Of a stretch of 64,000 nt of DNA, positions 2,858-28,471 are shown in pieces. Each line of letters starts with the position of its first letter. Position 1 is the stretch's first letter. This DNA is from Escherichia coli (lineage in GTDB: Bacteria > Pseudomonadota > Gammaproteobacteria > Enterobacterales > Enterobacteriaceae). Both the position numbers and the translations under genes were made by a program. A model generated the notes under the pieces. The model did no database searches, was not told where the DNA came from, and was given only the letters and a program-made list of their open reading frames with translations. The stretch is from NCBI RefSeq assembly GCF_024502345.1, contig NZ_JALDNN010000001.1; one strand, given 5' to 3'.

Positions 2858-4090
2858 ATGGCAAAGGTATCGCTGGAGAAAGACAAGATTAAGTTTCTGC
2901 TGGTAGAAGGCGTGCACCAAAAGGCGCTGGAAAGCCTTCGTGCAGCAGGTTACACCAACATCGAATTTCACAAAGGCGCGCTGGATGATGAACAATTAAA
3001 AGAATCCATCCGCGATGCCCACTTCATCGGCCTGCGATCCCGTACCCATCTGACTGAAGACGTGATCAACGCCGCAGAAAAACTGGTCGCTATTGGCTGT
3101 TTCTGTATCGGAACAAACCAGGTTGATCTGGATGCGGCGGCAAAGCGCGGGATCCCGGTATTTAACGCACCGTTCTCAAATACGCGCTCTGTTGCGGAGC
3201 TGGTGATTGGCGAACTGCTGCTGCTATTGCGCGGCGTGCCGGAAGCCAATGCTAAAGCGCACCGTGGCGTGTGGAACAAACTGGCGGCGGGTTCTTTTGA
3301 AGCGCGCGGCAAAAAGCTGGGTATCATCGGCTACGGTCATATTGGTACGCAATTGGGCATTCTGGCTGAATCGCTGGGAATGTATGTTTACTTTTATGAT
3401 ATTGAAAACAAACTGCCGCTGGGCAACGCCACTCAGGTACAGCATCTTTCTGACCTGCTGAATATGAGCGATGTGGTGAGTCTGCATGTACCAGAGAATC
3501 CGTCCACCAAAAATATGATGGGCGCGAAAGAGATTTCGCTAATGAAGCCCGGCTCGCTGCTGATTAATGCCTCGCGCGGTACTGTGGTGGATATTCCGGC
3601 GCTGTGTGATGCGCTGGCGAGCAAACATCTGGCGGGGGCGGCAATCGACGTATTCCCGACGGAACCGGCGACCAATAGCGATCCATTTACCTCTCCACTG
3701 TGTGAATTCGACAACGTCCTTCTGACGCCACACATTGGCGGTTCGACTCAGGAAGCGCAGGAGAATATCGGCCTGGAAGTTGCGGGTAAATTGATCAAGT
3801 ATTCTGACAATGGCTCAACGCTCTCTGCGGTGAACTTCCCGGAAGTCTCGCTGCCACTGCATGGTGGTCGTCGTCTGATGCACATCCACGAAAACCGTCC
3901 GGGCGTGCTAACTGCGCTGAACAAAATCTTCGCCGAGCAGGGCGTCAACATCGCCGCGCAATATCTACAAACTTCCGCCCAGATGGGTTATGTAGTTATT
4001 GATATTGAAGCTGACGAAGACGTTGCCGAAAAAGCGCTGCAGGCAATGAAAGCTATTCCGGGTACCATTCGCGCCCGTCTGCTGTACTAA
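2858..4090 (+). CDS. serA: D-3-phosphoglycerate dehydrogenase
   Basis: 410-aa ORF; NAD-binding GIIGYGHIGTQ motif and C-terminal ACT domain; recognised as SerA. Confidence 0.95.
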   Translation: MAKVSLEKDKIKFLLVEGVHQKALESLRAAGYTNIEFHKGALDDEQLKESIRDAHFIGLRSRTHLTEDVINAAEKLVAIGCFCIGTNQVDLDAAAKRGIPVFNAPFSNTRSVAELVIGELLLLLRGVPEANAKAHRGVWNKLAAGSFEARGKKLGIIGYGHIGTQLGILAESLGMYVYFYDIENKLPLGNATQVQHLSDLLNMSDVVSLHVPENPSTKNMMGAKEISLMKPGSLLINASRGTVVDIPALCDALASKHLAGAAIDVFPTEPATNSDPFTSPLCEFDNVLLTPHIGGSTQEAQENIGLEVAGKLIKYSDNGSTLSAVNFPEVSLPLHGGRRLMHIHENRPGVLTALNKIFAEQGVNIAAQYLQTSAQMGYVVIDIEADEDVAEKALQAMKAIPGTIRARLLY

Positions 4091-4142: not shown

Positions 4143-4271
4143 TCCCTTCTCCACACCGTTGCCGCGTTGCGCATTCTACTTTGCGAGTCTGCTCCAGAAA
4201 ATAAATCAAACTCAGATCAATGCGTTGTGTTTATTTAATGGGGATTTACGATGGCGGGACAGCATGGGGCT

Positions 4272-4410
4272 GTAACGGTAAAGCCCTCACCGAAGCGAGG
4301 GCTTAAAGGAGAAGGGTTATGATGCGACTTGTCATCATACTGATTGTACTGTTACTGATAAGTTTCGGAGCTTATTAACAGTCAGTCTCAGGGGAGGAGT
4401 CATCCTCCCT
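4272..4410 (-). ncRNA. Sib-like antisense RNA (antitoxin), copy 1; boundaries approximate
   Basis: Inferred from Ibs/Sib architecture: on the minus strand the palindrome AGCCCTCGCTTCGGTGAGGGCT followed by TTACCGTT (complement of 4279-4300) looks like the Sib terminator, overlapping the ibs 5' UTR. Confidence 0.4.
4319..4378 (+). CDS. Ibs-family type I toxin peptide (MMRLVIILIVLLLISFGAY, 19 aa)
   Basis: ATGATG start 7 nt after AAGGAG; extremely hydrophobic 19-aa product; position in the serA–fau intergenic region matches the known ibsC/sibC locus. Confidence 0.6.
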   Translation: MMRLVIILIVLLLISFGAY

Positions 4411-4663
4411 TACCCTTACTCACTAAATTAGGTCAAAGAATCAACGATGTCAATCAGGGCGATGCGGGGTGCATCGCCCTGAACCGAACTTTTTGATAGC
4501 CACTTCATCGCCCACGTTTACTGCCGTAATAGATCCTTTTTCCCAAAAATTATCTCTGTTTTGCATGGGGTTTTTCGAGCACGCTCGAAGAAAAGATTTA
4601 AAGGTAGATCAATGCGTTGTGGTTATTTAAAGAGAGCTTACGATAGCTGGGCAGCATGGGGCT

Positions 4664-4802
4664 GTAACGGTAAAGCCCTCACCGAAGCGAGGGCTTGAAG
4701 GAGAAGGGTTATGATGCGACTTGCCATCATACTGATTGTACTGTTACTCATAAGTTTCCCAGCTTATTAACAGTCAGTCACAGGGGAGGAGCAATCCTCC
4801 CT
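4664..4802 (-). ncRNA. Sib-like antisense RNA (antitoxin), copy 2; boundaries approximate
   Basis: Same inferred architecture as copy 1; palindrome at 4671-4692. Confidence 0.35.
4711..4770 (+). CDS. Ibs-family type I toxin peptide, variant (MMRLAIILIVLLLISFPAY, 19 aa)
   Basis: Paralogous 19-codon ORF in repeat copy 2; differs from copy 1 at V5A and G17P. Confidence 0.55.
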   Translation: MMRLAIILIVLLLISFPAY

Positions 4803-4870
4803 TACCCTTACTCACTAAATTAGGTTAAAGAATCAACGATGTCAATCAGGGCGATGCAGGTGTATCGCCC

Positions 4871-5419
4871 TTACCACTCCCAGACTTTCGACGGTGTAAC
4901 CACCGCAGGAAGAGGGATATCCCACTCTTCAACGGGGAGTTTTTCCACCAACTGACAATCATGCGCATAACCCACCGGTTGCGTTTTATAGTGCTGCCAG
5001 TTTTGTAAGGTCCGATCATAAAAACCACCGCCCATTCCCAGGCGCTGACCGTACTCATCAAAGGCGACCAGCGGTGTGATCAGCACGTCTAATCGGGAAA
5101 GGGGTAGCACGTCACGCACATCCAGTTTTGGCTCATGGATTTTCAACCTGTTCATCACCAGTTCGCTTTGCGGATGGTAATTCAGGAACAGCAAATTACC
5201 GGCACTAAAGGGATGCAAAACTGGAAGATATACGCGCTTACCGGCGCGCCAGAGTTGTTCTATGAGTGGCTGGGTGTCGAGTTCGCCATCAAAAGAGAGG
5301 AATACAGCGACCGTATGTGCCATCACCACCGGGGGATAAGTCATCATCCGGGTAGCGGCTTGTTGACCCATTTCCTGCTGTTGTTCCGGCGTTAACGCAC
5401 GACGACGTTGCCGAATCAT
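4871..5419 (-). CDS. fau: 5-formyltetrahydrofolate cyclo-ligase
   Basis: ORF 4871..5617; start set at MIRQRRRALTPEQ (complement of 5417-5419), giving 182 aa, downstream of the 6S RNA 3' end. Confidence 0.88.
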   Translation of the reverse strand: MIRQRRRALTPEQQQEMGQQAATRMMTYPPVVMAHTVAVFLSFDGELDTQPLIEQLWRAGKRVYLPVLHPFSAGNLLFLNYHPQSELVMNRLKIHEPKLDVRDVLPLSRLDVLITPLVAFDEYGQRLGMGGGFYDRTLQNWQHYKTQPVGYAHDCQLVEKLPVEEWDIPLPAVVTPSKVWEW

Positions 5420-5481
5420 TTTGCGGATTTCTTGTCGGGATAATGTCAGTGGGAGTTCTGGTAGTTGCGTCATGGCTGGTG

Positions 5482-23430: not shown

Positions 23431-25164
23431 GTGAAACAACAGATACAACTTCGTCGCCGTGAAGTCGATGAAACGGCAGACTTGCCCGCTGAATTGCCTC
23501 CCTTGCTGCGCCGTTTATACGCCAGCCGGGGAGTACGCAGTGCGCAAGAACTGGAACGCAGTGTTAAAGGTATGCTGCCCTGGCAGCAACTGAGCGGCGT
23601 CGAAAAGGCCGTTGAGATCCTTTACAACGCTTTTCGCGAAGGAACGCGGATTATTGTGGTCGGTGATTTTGATGCCGACGGCGCGACCAGCACGGCTCTA
23701 AGCGTGCTGGCGATGCGCTCGCTTGGTTGCAGCAATATCGACTATCTGGTACCAAACCGTTTCGAAGACGGTTACGGCTTAAGCCCGGAAGTAGTCGATC
23801 AGGCCCATGCCCGTGGCGCGCAGTTAATTGTCACGGTGGATAACGGTATTTCCTCCCATGCGGGCGTTGAACACGCTCGCTCGTTGGGCATTCCGGTTAT
23901 TGTTACCGATCACCATTTGCCGGGCGAAACATTACCCGCAGCGGAAGCGATCATTAACCCTAACTTGCGCGACTGTAATTTCCCGTCGAAATCACTGGCA
24001 GGCGTGGGTGTGGCGTTTTATCTGATGCTGGCGCTGCGCACCTTTTTGCGCGATCAGGGCTGGTTTGATGAGCGTGGCATCGCAATTCCTAACCTGGCAG
24101 AACTGCTGGATCTGGTCGCGCTGGGAACAGTGGCGGACGTCGTGCCGCTGGACGCTAATAATCGCATTCTGACCTGGCAGGGGATGAGTCGCATCCGTGC
24201 CGGAAAGTGCCGTCCAGGGATTAAAGCGCTGCTGGAAGTGGCAAACCGTGATGCACAAAAACTCGCCGCCAGCGATTTAGGTTTTGCGCTGGGGCCACGT
24301 CTCAATGCTGCCGGACGACTGGACGATATGTCCGTCGGTGTGGCGCTCTTGCTGTGCGACAACATCGGCGAAGCGCGCGTGCTGGCAAATGAACTCGATG
24401 CGCTAAACCAGACGCGAAAAGAGATCGAACAAGGAATGCAAGTTGAAGCCCTGACCCTGTGCGAGAAACTGGAGCGAAGTCGCGACACGCTACCCGGCGG
24501 GCTGGCAATGTATCACCCCGAATGGCATCAGGGCGTTGTCGGTATTCTGGCTTCGCGCATCAAAGAGCGTTTTCACCGTCCGGTTATCGCCTTTGCGCCA
24601 GCAGGTGATGGTACGCTGAAAGGTTCAGGTCGCTCCATTCAGGGGCTGCATATGCGTGATGCACTGGAGCGATTAGACACACTCTACCCTGGCATGATAC
24701 TGAAGTTTGGCGGTCATGCGATGGCGGCGGGTTTGTCGCTGGAAGAGGATAAATTCGAACTCTTTCAACAACGGTTTGGCGAACTGGTTACAGAGTGGCT
24801 GGACCCTTCGCTATTGCAAGGCGAAGTGGTGTCAGACGGTCCGTTAAGCCCGGCCGAAATGACCATGGAAGTGGCGCAGTTGCTGCGCGATGCTGGCCCG
24901 TGGGGGCAGATGTTCCCGGAGCCGCTGTTTGACGGTCATTTCCGTCTGCTGCAACAGCGGCTGGTGGGCGAACGTCATTTGAAGGTGATGGTCGAACCGG
25001 TCGGCGGCGGTCCACTGCTGGATGGTATTGCTTTTAATGTCGATACCGCCCTCTGGCCGGATAACGGCGTGCGCGAAGTGCAACTGGCTTACAAGCTCGA
25101 TATCAACGAGTTTCGCGGCAACCGCAGCCTGCAAATTATCATCGACAATATCTGGCCAATTTAG
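23431..25164 (+). CDS. recJ: single-stranded-DNA-specific 5'-3' exonuclease RecJ
   Basis: 577 aa; DHH phosphoesterase motifs (VVGDFDADGATS, DHH). Confidence 0.95.
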   Translation: MKQQIQLRRREVDETADLPAELPPLLRRLYASRGVRSAQELERSVKGMLPWQQLSGVEKAVEILYNAFREGTRIIVVGDFDADGATSTALSVLAMRSLGCSNIDYLVPNRFEDGYGLSPEVVDQAHARGAQLIVTVDNGISSHAGVEHARSLGIPVIVTDHHLPGETLPAAEAIINPNLRDCNFPSKSLAGVGVAFYLMLALRTFLRDQGWFDERGIAIPNLAELLDLVALGTVADVVPLDANNRILTWQGMSRIRAGKCRPGIKALLEVANRDAQKLAASDLGFALGPRLNAAGRLDDMSVGVALLLCDNIGEARVLANELDALNQTRKEIEQGMQVEALTLCEKLERSRDTLPGGLAMYHPEWHQGVVGILASRIKERFHRPVIAFAPAGDGTLKGSGRSIQGLHMRDALERLDTLYPGMILKFGGHAMAAGLSLEEDKFELFQQRFGELVTEWLDPSLLQGEVVSDGPLSPAEMTMEVAQLLRDAGPWGQMFPEPLFDGHFRLLQQRLVGERHLKVMVEPVGGGPLLDGIAFNVDTALWPDNGVREVQLAYKLDINEFRGNRSLQIIIDNIWPI

Positions 25165-25254
25165 CGTCATCTTCTCTATAAAAAAGAGCGTGGATTGGGT
25201 ACAATCCCGCTCTTATCACCGCATTTTGACTAGCTCAATAAAAGAAATCAGACC

Positions 25255-26353
25255 ATGTTTGAAATTAATCCGGTAAATAATCGCATTCAGGACCTCACGG
25301 AACGCTCCGACGTTCTTAGGGGGTATCTTTGACTACGACGCCAAGAAAGAGCGTCTGGAAGAAGTAAACGCCGAGCTGGAACAGCCGGATGTCTGGAACG
25401 AACCCGAACGCGCACAGGCGCTGGGTAAAGAGCGTTCCTCCCTCGAAGCCGTTGTCGACACCCTCGACCAAATGAAACAGGGGCTGGAAGATGTTTCTGG
25501 TCTGCTGGAACTGGCTGTAGAAGCTGACGACGAAGAAACCTTTAACGAAGCCGTTGCTGAACTCGACGCCCTGGAAGAAAAACTGGCGCAGCTTGAGTTC
25601 CGCCGTATGTTCTCTGGCGAATATGACAGCGCCGACTGCTACCTCGATATTCAGGCGGGGTCTGGCGGTACGGAAGCACAGGACTGGGCGAGCATGCTTG
25701 AGCGTATGTATCTGCGCTGGGCAGAATCGCGTGGTTTCAAAACTGAAATCATCGAAGAGTCGGAAGGTGAAGTGGCGGGTATTAAATCCGTGACGATCAA
25801 AATCTCCGGCGATTACGCTTACGGCTGGCTGCGTACAGAAACTGGCGTTCACCGCCTGGTGCGTAAAAGCCCGTTTGACTCCGGCGGTCGTCGCCACACA
25901 TCGTTCAGCTCTGCGTTTGTTTACCCGGAAGTTGATGATGATATTGATATCGAAATCAACCCGGCGGATCTGCGCATTGACGTTTATCGCGCGTCCGGCG
26001 CGGGCGGTCAGCACGTTAACCGTACCGAATCTGCGGTGCGTATTACCCACATCCCAACCGGGATCGTGACCCAATGCCAGAACGACCGTTCCCAGCACAA
26101 GAACAAAGACCAGGCCATGAAGCAGATGAAAGCGAAGCTTTATGAACTGGAGATGCAGAAGAAAAATGCCGAGAAACAGGCGATGGAAGATAACAAATCC
26201 GACATCGGCTGGGGCAGCCAGATTCGTTCTTATGTCCTTGATGACTCCCGCATTAAAGATCTGCGTACCGGGGTAGAAACCCGCAACACGCAGGCCGTGC
26301 TGGACGGCAGCCTGGATCAATTTATCGAAGCAAGTTTGAAAGCAGGGTTATGA
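25255..26353 (+). CDS. prfB: peptide chain release factor 2, with programmed +1 frameshift at CUU UGA C (25327-25333)
   Basis: Frame 0 from ATG 25255 gives [25 protein letters not shown] then an in-frame TGA at 25330-25332; the +1 frame from 25331 continues [12 protein letters not shown]... into ORF 25472..26353; AGGGGG SD-like element lies 3 nt upstream; GGQ motif present. Confidence 0.93.
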
Positions 26354-26362
26354 GGAACCAAC

Positions 26363-27880
26363 ATGTCTGAACAACACGCACAGGGCGCTGACGCGGTAGT
26401 CGATCTTAACAATGAACTGAAAACGCGTCGTGAGAAGCTGGCGAACCTGCGCGAGCAGGGGATTGCCTTCCCGAACGATTTCCGTCGCGATCATACCTCT
26501 GACCAATTGCACGCAGAATTCGACGGTAAAGAGAACGAAGAACTGGAAGCGCTGAACATCGAAGTCGCCGTTGCTGGCCGCATGATGACCCGCCGTATTA
26601 TGGGTAAAGCGTCTTTCGTTACCCTGCAGGATGTGGGTGGCCGCATTCAGCTGTACGTTGCCCGTGACGATCTGCCGGAAGGCGTTTACAACGAGCAGTT
26701 CAAAAAATGGGACCTCGGTGACATCCTCGGCGCGAAAGGTAAACTGTTCAAAACCAAAACCGGCGAACTGTCTATCCACTGTACCGAGCTGCGTCTGCTG
26801 ACCAAAGCACTGCGTCCGCTGCCGGATAAATTCCACGGCTTGCAGGATCAGGAAGCGCGCTATCGTCAGCGTTATCTGGATCTCATCTCTAACGATGAAT
26901 CCCGTAACACCTTTAAAGTGCGCTCGCAGATCCTCTCTGGTATTCGCCAGTTCATGGTGAACCGCGGCTTTATGGAAGTTGAAACGCCGATGATGCAGGT
27001 GATCCCTGGCGGTGCCGCTGCGCGTCCGTTTATCACCCACCATAACGCGCTGGATCTCGACATGTACCTGCGTATCGCGCCGGAACTGTACCTCAAGCGT
27101 CTGGTGGTCGGTGGCTTCGAGCGTGTATTCGAAATCAACCGTAACTTCCGTAACGAAGGTATCTCCGTACGTCATAACCCAGAGTTCACCATGATGGAAC
27201 TCTACATGGCTTACGCAGATTACAAAGATCTGATCGAGCTGACCGAATCGCTGTTCCGTACTCTGGCACAGGATATTCTCGGTAAGACGGAAGTGACCTA
27301 CGGCGACGTGACGCTGGACTTCGGTAAACCGTTCGAAAAACTGACCATGCGTGAAGCGATCAAGAAATATCGCCCGGAAACCGACATGGCGGATCTGGAT
27401 AACTTCGACTCTGCGAAAGCGATTGCTGAATCTATCGGTATCCACGTTGAGAAGAGCTGGGGTCTGGGCCGTATCGTTACCGAGATCTTCGAAGAAGTGG
27501 CAGAAGCACATCTGATTCAGCCGACCTTCATTACTGAATATCCGGCAGAAGTTTCTCCGCTGGCGCGTCGTAACGACATTAACCCGGAAATCACAGACCG
27601 CTTTGAGTTCTTCATCGGTGGTCGTGAAATCGGTAACGGCTTTAGCGAGCTGAATGACGCGGAAGATCAGGCGCAACGCTTCCTGGATCAGGTTGCCGCG
27701 AAAGACGCAGGTGACGACGAAGCGATGTTCTACGATGAAGATTACGTTACCGCACTGGAACATGGCTTACCGCCGACAGCAGGTCTGGGGATTGGCATCG
27801 ACCGTATGGTAATGCTGTTCACCAACAGCCATACCATCCGCGACGTTATTCTGTTCCCGGCGATGCGTCCGGTAAAATAA
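26363..27880 (+). CDS. lysS: lysyl-tRNA synthetase (constitutive)
   Basis: 505 aa; class II aaRS motifs. Confidence 0.95.
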
Positions 27881-27898
27881 GCATTACGTTATGCTCAC

Positions 27899-27926
27899 AA
27901 CCCCGGCAAATGTCGGGGTTTTTTAA
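27899..27926. terminator. bidirectional rho-independent terminator between lysS and idi
   Basis: AACCCCGGCAAATGTCGGGGTTTTTT; the T-run overlaps the idi stop codon. Confidence 0.75.
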
Positions 27927-28471
27927 TTGTGCTGCGCGAAAGTAGACAACAATTTTCTTGCTTCACTATTGGCTGCCTGCATCACCATCCACGGACTGAA
28001 CGCCCACGGTGTGGCATCAATACCGTGTAATACATCTGCTAAATCACACCATTGATAATCCATCACTTCATCATCGTTGATCTGTAACGCACTGGTGGTG
28101 CGTGCGGCAAATACCGGACACACTTCATTTTCCACAATGCCATTCGGATCGGTGGCGCGATAGCGAAAGTCAGGATAGATAGATTCAGGAGGCGTAATTT
28201 CCACGCCAAGCTCATAACGGCAACGGCGGATCACCGCGTCTTCGTTGCTTTCTCCCAGTTGTGGGTGCCCACAAACCGAGTTAGTCCACACGCCAGGCCA
28301 CGCTTTTTTGCTCAGTGCGCGGCGGGTAACTAATAATTGTCCTTTGGCATTAAACAGCCAACTGGAGAACGCGAGATGTAAGCGGGTGTCTGCCGTGTGT
28401 GCGGCATACTTTTCCAGCGTACCCGTGGGAACTCCCTGTGCATTCAATAAAATGACGTGTTCCGTTTGCAT
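27923..28471 (-). CDS. idi: isopentenyl-diphosphate delta-isomerase (Nudix type)
   Basis: 182 aa; [41 protein letters not shown]... Confidence 0.93.

Follow-up and report, generated by a model that had tools for sequence, protein, structure and literature searches.

When an open reading frame (ORF) caller cuts a gene in two, is the gene broken, or is it read in two frames? The question is raised by prfB, the gene for release factor 2 (RF2), in the Escherichia coli DNA analysed here (the window, a single stretch of 64,000 nucleotides), where the mechanical ORF list divides it into a 25-aa piece (25255..25332) and a 293-aa piece (25472..26353), the latter starting at the first ATG of the +1 frame. 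A true inactivating 1-nt indel, in a pseudogene or as a sequencing or assembly error, could leave the same two pieces. The answer to which we assign a probability of about 0.98 is that the site is the E. coli programmed +1 ribosomal frameshift, which makes RF2 synthesis self-limiting. An earlier note on this DNA had attributed the split of the ORF track to this textbook RF2 recoding site, and the present analysis supports that account in every part.

Anatomy of the site and of its product

Over the region read (25100-26600), the prfB site contains the string cttAGGGGGTATCTTTGACtac, and its anatomy is established directly. Frame 0 opens with the ATG at 25255-25257 and runs for 25 codons (ORF0, the start codon and first 25 sense codons, Met1-Leu25 of RF2; 25255..25329, + strand), as given by translation and by the match with RF2 chains, before TGA at 25330-25332 follows as codon 26, exactly where the earlier note had placed an in-frame UGA. 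This UGA is an RF2-specific stop and, with the C that follows (25330..25333, +), forms a weak termination context (PMC12421855). Immediately upstream are the slippery CUUU (25327..25330, +), composed of CUU (CTT at 25327-25329, Leu25, the P-site codon) and the U of UGA (mechanism in PMC12421855), and a 3-nt spacer UAU (25324..25326, +; Tyr24), which would be the E-site codon during the ribosome pause. The Shine-Dalgarno (SD)-like element AGGGGG, recognised from its sequence and its anti-SD pairing, is internal to the gene, where it encodes Arg22-Gly23 in frame 0 (25318..25323, +). The slippery CUU UGA C context that the earlier note had described is present as stated, and its spacing of 3 nt for AGGGGG is correct when counted to the CUU codon, the distance to the UGA being 6 nt. 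Assembled, the motif is AGGGGG-TAT-CTT-TGA-C, with C25333 as its final base.

The shift skips U25330 and makes GAC (25331-25333) the first codon of the new frame. Bounded by a TAA (25274-25276) and the TGA at 26351-26353, the +1 frame is open from 25277 onward and contains 340 open codons counted from 25331; its coding part, Asp26 to Leu365 with the natural UGA stop (25331..26353, +), is supported by translation, by family and structure matches and by the joined coding sequence (CDS) of RefSeq. An intact downstream frame of this length, with the SPF and GGQ motifs of RF2 in place and no pseudogene flag in RefSeq, argues against an inactivated gene, as does the conserved 13-base signal that flanks the supposed defect. 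Searched with up to one mismatch allowed on both strands of the 64-kb window, this composite motif, AGGGGGNNNCTTTGAC (13 specified bases), occurs once, against the 0.05 occurrences expected from shuffles. The bare heptamer CTTTGAC is at chance level in the window (11 seen, 7.9 expected), and because it is not rare on its own, the prfB signal consists in the combination of the elements and their position in the gene.

The 365-aa protein formed by Met1-Leu25 and Asp26-Leu365 together can be identified just as directly. It scores 525.9 bits on the NCBIfam model TIGR00020, 'peptide chain release factor 2', for which the curated prfB cut-off is 370 bits, and the alignment covers residues 12-362 in a single stretch that spans the junction, while the prfA (RF1) models reach only 304-306 bits, under their own cut-offs. 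Two Pfam domains are found, PCRF (PF03462) at residues 31-219 and RF-1 (PF00472) at 228-337. E. coli RF2 structure chains align from 1-365 to 1-365, across Leu25-Asp26; taking the chain sequences as supplied by their depositors, residue 298 is the sole difference from 1gqe, and residue 246, Ala here and Thr there, the sole difference from 1ml5 and other K-12-type chains. The joined product thus belongs to the RF2 class by a full-length match above the cut-off and better than that to RF1, and by the presence of both the SPF tripeptide (S205-P206-F207; 25868-25876, +) and GGQ (G250-G251-Q252; 26003-26011, +), which lie intact within the +1 frame. In RF2, SPF is the tripeptide that recognises the stop codon and GGQ is the catalytic motif. 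The conceptual translation with a +1 shift that had been suggested as a check therefore yields full-length RF2 from the 25-codon leader and the +1 frame, the suggested comparison with reference RF2 gives an alignment to 1gqe and 1ml5 over residues 1-365, and the downstream RF2 homology that the earlier note had reported in the +1 frame is present well above the family cut-off.

The codon for residue 246 (GCG; 25991-25993, +, within the +1 frame) specifies the canonical E. coli B-type allele, Thr246 being peculiar to K-12 laboratory strains (PMC5373646), and the strain is therefore not a K-12 derivative. According to the literature, Ala246 RF2 terminates better than the K-12 form, and in an MG1655 background it is associated with a frameshifting of about 21%, compared with about 28% for the K-12 allele (PMC5373646). 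The strain would combine the canonical RF2 loop with the fully active Ala246 form of the protein.

Three further readings of the locus bear on the same data. The UGA at codon 26 might be read through, by a near-cognate tRNA or as selenocysteine, with frame 0 kept; the stop context UGA-C is leaky and UGA readthrough does occur at a low level in E. coli (PMC5373646), yet frame 0 reaches another stop 31 codons beyond the UGA and has no RF2 similarity there, the RF2 homology from residue 26 onward lying exclusively in the +1 frame. Nor did an Rfam scan of 25000-26500 (E <= 1) return any match, SECIS elements and frameshift stimulators included, and no significant fold was found at 25300-25400 (-31.4 kcal/mol, z = -1.46, a fold matched by 16 of 200 shuffles), and we regard readthrough, with or without selenocysteine, as extremely improbable. 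It could also be argued that AGGGGG, whose pairing with the anti-SD is good, is an ordinary ribosome-binding site, and that RF2 arises by initiation or re-initiation downstream, from the second of two separate genes, as would fit the ORF lister's choice of ATG 25472 for the start of the long ORF. The +1 frame has no ATG, GTG or TTG in 25277-25472, so that initiation downstream would lose RF2 residues 1-72; residues 12-72, however, are covered by the alignments to the RF2 family profile and to Thermus RF2 chains, which are continuous over the junction, and the approximately 150 nt between AGGGGG and ATG 25472 are far over the spacing between an SD and its start codon. Two genes with separate starts are hence scarcely credible, and the locus holds no route to full-length RF2 other than the frameshift.

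Finally, the opposite strand carries a long open frame of its own, a 334-aa ORF at 25316-26320 (-), which could in principle be the real gene. Pfam gives no match for it at E <= 0.1 and RefSeq no annotation, and it lies wholly opposite a gene with a 525.9-bit family match; we rejected it as a shadow ORF, and the chance that it is a gene is vanishingly small. Highly expressed genes whose codon bias is strong often have long shadow ORFs of this kind on their antisense strand. No evidence obtained here contradicts the reading of the site as a programmed frameshift.

Conservation within E. coli and across species

Many E. coli chromosomes carry the 1301-bp prfB region with 100% identity, and 5425 of 5426 complete genomes contain the locus. 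On identical DNA, RefSeq annotates a two-piece CDS as 'prfB, peptide chain release factor 2, programmed frameshift', joined over 25255..26353 (coordinates of locus L125, which coincide with those of the window), in agreement with the earlier statement that prfB is not a pseudogene. A 61-nt query centred on the site matched 5424/5426 E. coli genomes, with an identity of at least 99% in 4410, and in the three lowest-identity variants examined, all still labelled as programmed frameshift by RefSeq, the changes are only at 25309, 25336 and 25340, outside the motif. That the site is essentially fixed in E. coli follows directly from these matches. An indel error or a decaying gene would have to take the form of an identical 'defect' in 5424-5425 of the 5426 genomes, which weighs heavily against either. 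The locus or the 61-nt site region went unmatched in one or two of the 5426 genomes, and prfB was found on one E. coli record labelled plasmid. The whole window is collinear, at approximately 99% identity, with one strain whose prfB is 100% identical.

The signal was also searched for outside the species, with AGGGGGNNTCTTTGAC in one genome per species over approximately 100,000 species, which gave at least 120 loci, and those 120 were analysed. In 108 of the 120 matches listed, the +1 frame beyond the TGA specifies an RF2 homologue (25-99.7% identity), and in 106 of these 108 the alignment begins at the residue corresponding to E. coli residue 26; among the other 12 matches listed, three are cut off by the end of the locus and nine are unrelated chance matches. 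The RF2-positive loci among the matches listed come from Gamma-, Beta-, Alpha- and Deltaproteobacteria-type lineages, Bacillota, Bacteroidota, Gemmatimonadota, Fusobacteriota and others, and conservation of the junction at the same codon in distant bacteria is thus a direct observation. The recurrence of one codon in 108 of the 120 matches listed, distant phyla included, is a further argument against an inactivating indel or an error, and we give a pseudogene or a faulty sequence practically no credence. Since the sample was selected on the motif, these numbers speak for the specificity of the motif for prfB and not for its prevalence among prfB genes. A survey of 12,753 genomes found the prfB frameshift in 64%, with AGGGGG, CTTT, TGA and C almost invariant (PMC12421855).

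Among the matches listed, 109 loci bear the motif with enough flanking sequence, all of them prfB or probable prfB, and in these the TGA lies at codon 21-32, mostly 25, 26 or 28. Their spacer codon is TAT in 62, TCT in 28, TTT in nine and CAT in seven of the matches listed, counts that hold within a search pattern which sets the third base of the spacer to T. By lineage, again among the matches listed, most Proteobacteria have TAT and Bacillota have TCT, while TTT or CAT is found in other groups. Two metagenome-assembled genomes, those of loci L039 (motif at 3947) and L053 (motif at 11017), have the full prfB motif with early stops in the +1 frame, which ends after 69 and 234 codons, respectively, though the sequence continues; assembly error or decaying prfB copies could account for these stops.

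Proposed mechanism of the shift

The mechanism of the E. coli prfB frameshift, including the role of the UGA-C context, has been summarised previously (PMC12421855). Applied to the present coordinates, ribosomes would initiate at ATG 25255, read 25 codons and halt when CUU (Leu25) occupies the P site and UGA-C the A site, while AGGGGG of the mRNA, 3 nt upstream of CUU, would pair with the 3' end of the 16S rRNA. With RF2 plentiful, the UGA would be read by RF2 itself and the 25-residue peptide released, whereas with RF2 scarce the ribosome would wait at the weak stop until the peptidyl-tRNA-Leu moved from CUU to the overlapping UUU, a slip that the pause, the SD-anti-SD duplex and the weak pairing at CUU would together permit. 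GAC (25331-25333) would then be decoded as Asp26, and translation in the +1 frame would lead to the 365-residue RF2. In this classic case, a protein and a recoding event compete for a stop codon in the protein's own gene, and the protein thereby sets its own level.

We infer from the identity with the studied E. coli sequence that the shift occurs in this strain and responds to the level of RF2. Ribosome profiling of the native E. coli prfB locus gave a frameshifting of about 21-28%, termination with release of the 25-residue product being the outcome of most passes through the site, and frameshifting rises when RF3 is deleted (PMC5373646). The parts attributed here to SD-anti-SD pairing and to the E-site tRNA would likewise be those described for prfB in the E. 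coli literature. The predicted pairing energies are consistent with such a part for the SD-like element: among prfB 12-mers, the one from 25317 is predicted to pair most strongly with the 16S 3' end (-12.6 kcal/mol), and the one tested for the site itself (25316-25327, -11.4 kcal/mol) is in the top 0.3% of + strand 12-mers in the window. For these calculations the anti-SD was represented by the established sequence of the 16S 3' end, GAUCACCUCCUUA, the window containing no 16S gene. That no significant downstream structure was found fits a site where SD pairing and a slow stop drive the shift.

Considering how often the 25-residue peptide would be released, we asked whether it might have a function of its own, which we judge very unlikely. 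A Pfam search with the ORF0 peptide found no family match, and its sequence is constrained in any case, being the N-terminus of RF2.

Genomic context and comparison with known systems

RefSeq gives the gene order xerD-dsbC-recJ-prfB-lysS, with idi convergent. The lysine-tRNA ligase gene lysS (26363..27880, +) starts 9 nt 3' of the prfB stop, and the two genes are probably co-transcribed, as suggested by this spacing and by what is established of the prfB-lysS operon; the only terminator-like site on the + strand in a scan of 25000-28100 follows lysS, at 27899-27920, which is consistent with that operon. In the same scan, no promoter-like match reached the threshold in the recJ-prfB spacer, and since the totals equal the shuffle expectation the scan is uninformative on the prfB promoter. 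The prfB gene itself ends in a UGA, followed by G (26351-26363 region), that is read by RF2 only, and the GAGG before lysS overlaps this stop. The 90-nt recJ-prfB spacer contains an extended inverted repeat, AGAGCG-TGGATTG...CAATCC-CGCTCT (approximately 25184-25214), and folds at -22.1 kcal/mol; an A-run precedes the repeat on the + strand, which puts a T-run on the minus-strand side, and this strong hairpin may serve to terminate recJ or to block transcription from the antisense direction.

Two other places in the window deserve mention. An insertion sequence of the IS3 family (approximately 63140-64000, -) interrupts ygeQ beside tRNA-Gly(CCC) (62299-62372), and the ygeQ/IS3 junction is present at a query cover of at least 80% in only 187 of the 5426 E. 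coli genomes; the element continues past the end of the window, and its orfA-orfB -1 programmed frameshift site is just outside. Cross-matches of the window with the reference strain also revealed a pair of direct repeats of approximately 270 bp and 92% identity (approximately 4214-4871), annotated in that strain as two Ibs-family type I toxin loci, with the 6S RNA gene (ssrS) nearby.

The main value of the prfB site lies in correct annotation and in the control of sequence quality. It accounts for the halving of an essential gene in a naive ORF track and guards against a false pseudogene call. One base gained or lost in 25318-25333 would destroy or mimic the signal, and the sequence here is for that reason free of indel errors; the use of the site as an internal quality control, which the earlier note had advised, is appropriate.

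The site is already known, being the prfB frameshift base for base, and is annotated in public genomes. Craigen and Caskey reportedly gave the first description of the E. coli prfB +1 frameshift, in 1985-86, and the present site does not differ from it: AGGGGG-UAU-CUU-UGA-C is identical, the stop is at the same codon 26, the product has the same 365 aa and the recJ-prfB-lysS context is shared. At the level of sequence, all its defining features are present, and the dependence of its efficiency on RF2 is documented for the identical sequence. What distinguishes the gene from that of K-12 laboratory strains is the RF2 encoded, with Ala246 in place of Thr246. The prfB genes of other bacteria, such as those of Bacillota (AGGGGG-UCU-CUU-UGA-C) and Bacteroidota, have in common with it the SD-like element, the 3-nt spacing and CUUUGAC, and their junction is, as here, at the residue aligned with E. 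coli Asp26, but the E-site spacer codon varies by lineage and the leader comprises 21-32 codons among the matches listed. The -1 frameshifts of E. coli, in dnaX and in transposases of the IS3 and IS1 families, are likewise recoding events with joined CDSs in RefSeq, and at the dnaX and IS911-type -1 sites, too, an internal SD-like element acts as a stimulator. The -1 sites nevertheless move the ribosome the other way, on heptamers of the form X XXY YYZ and usually with a downstream stem-loop or pseudoknot, and, unlike prfB, they have neither a stop codon in the A site nor feedback by their product.
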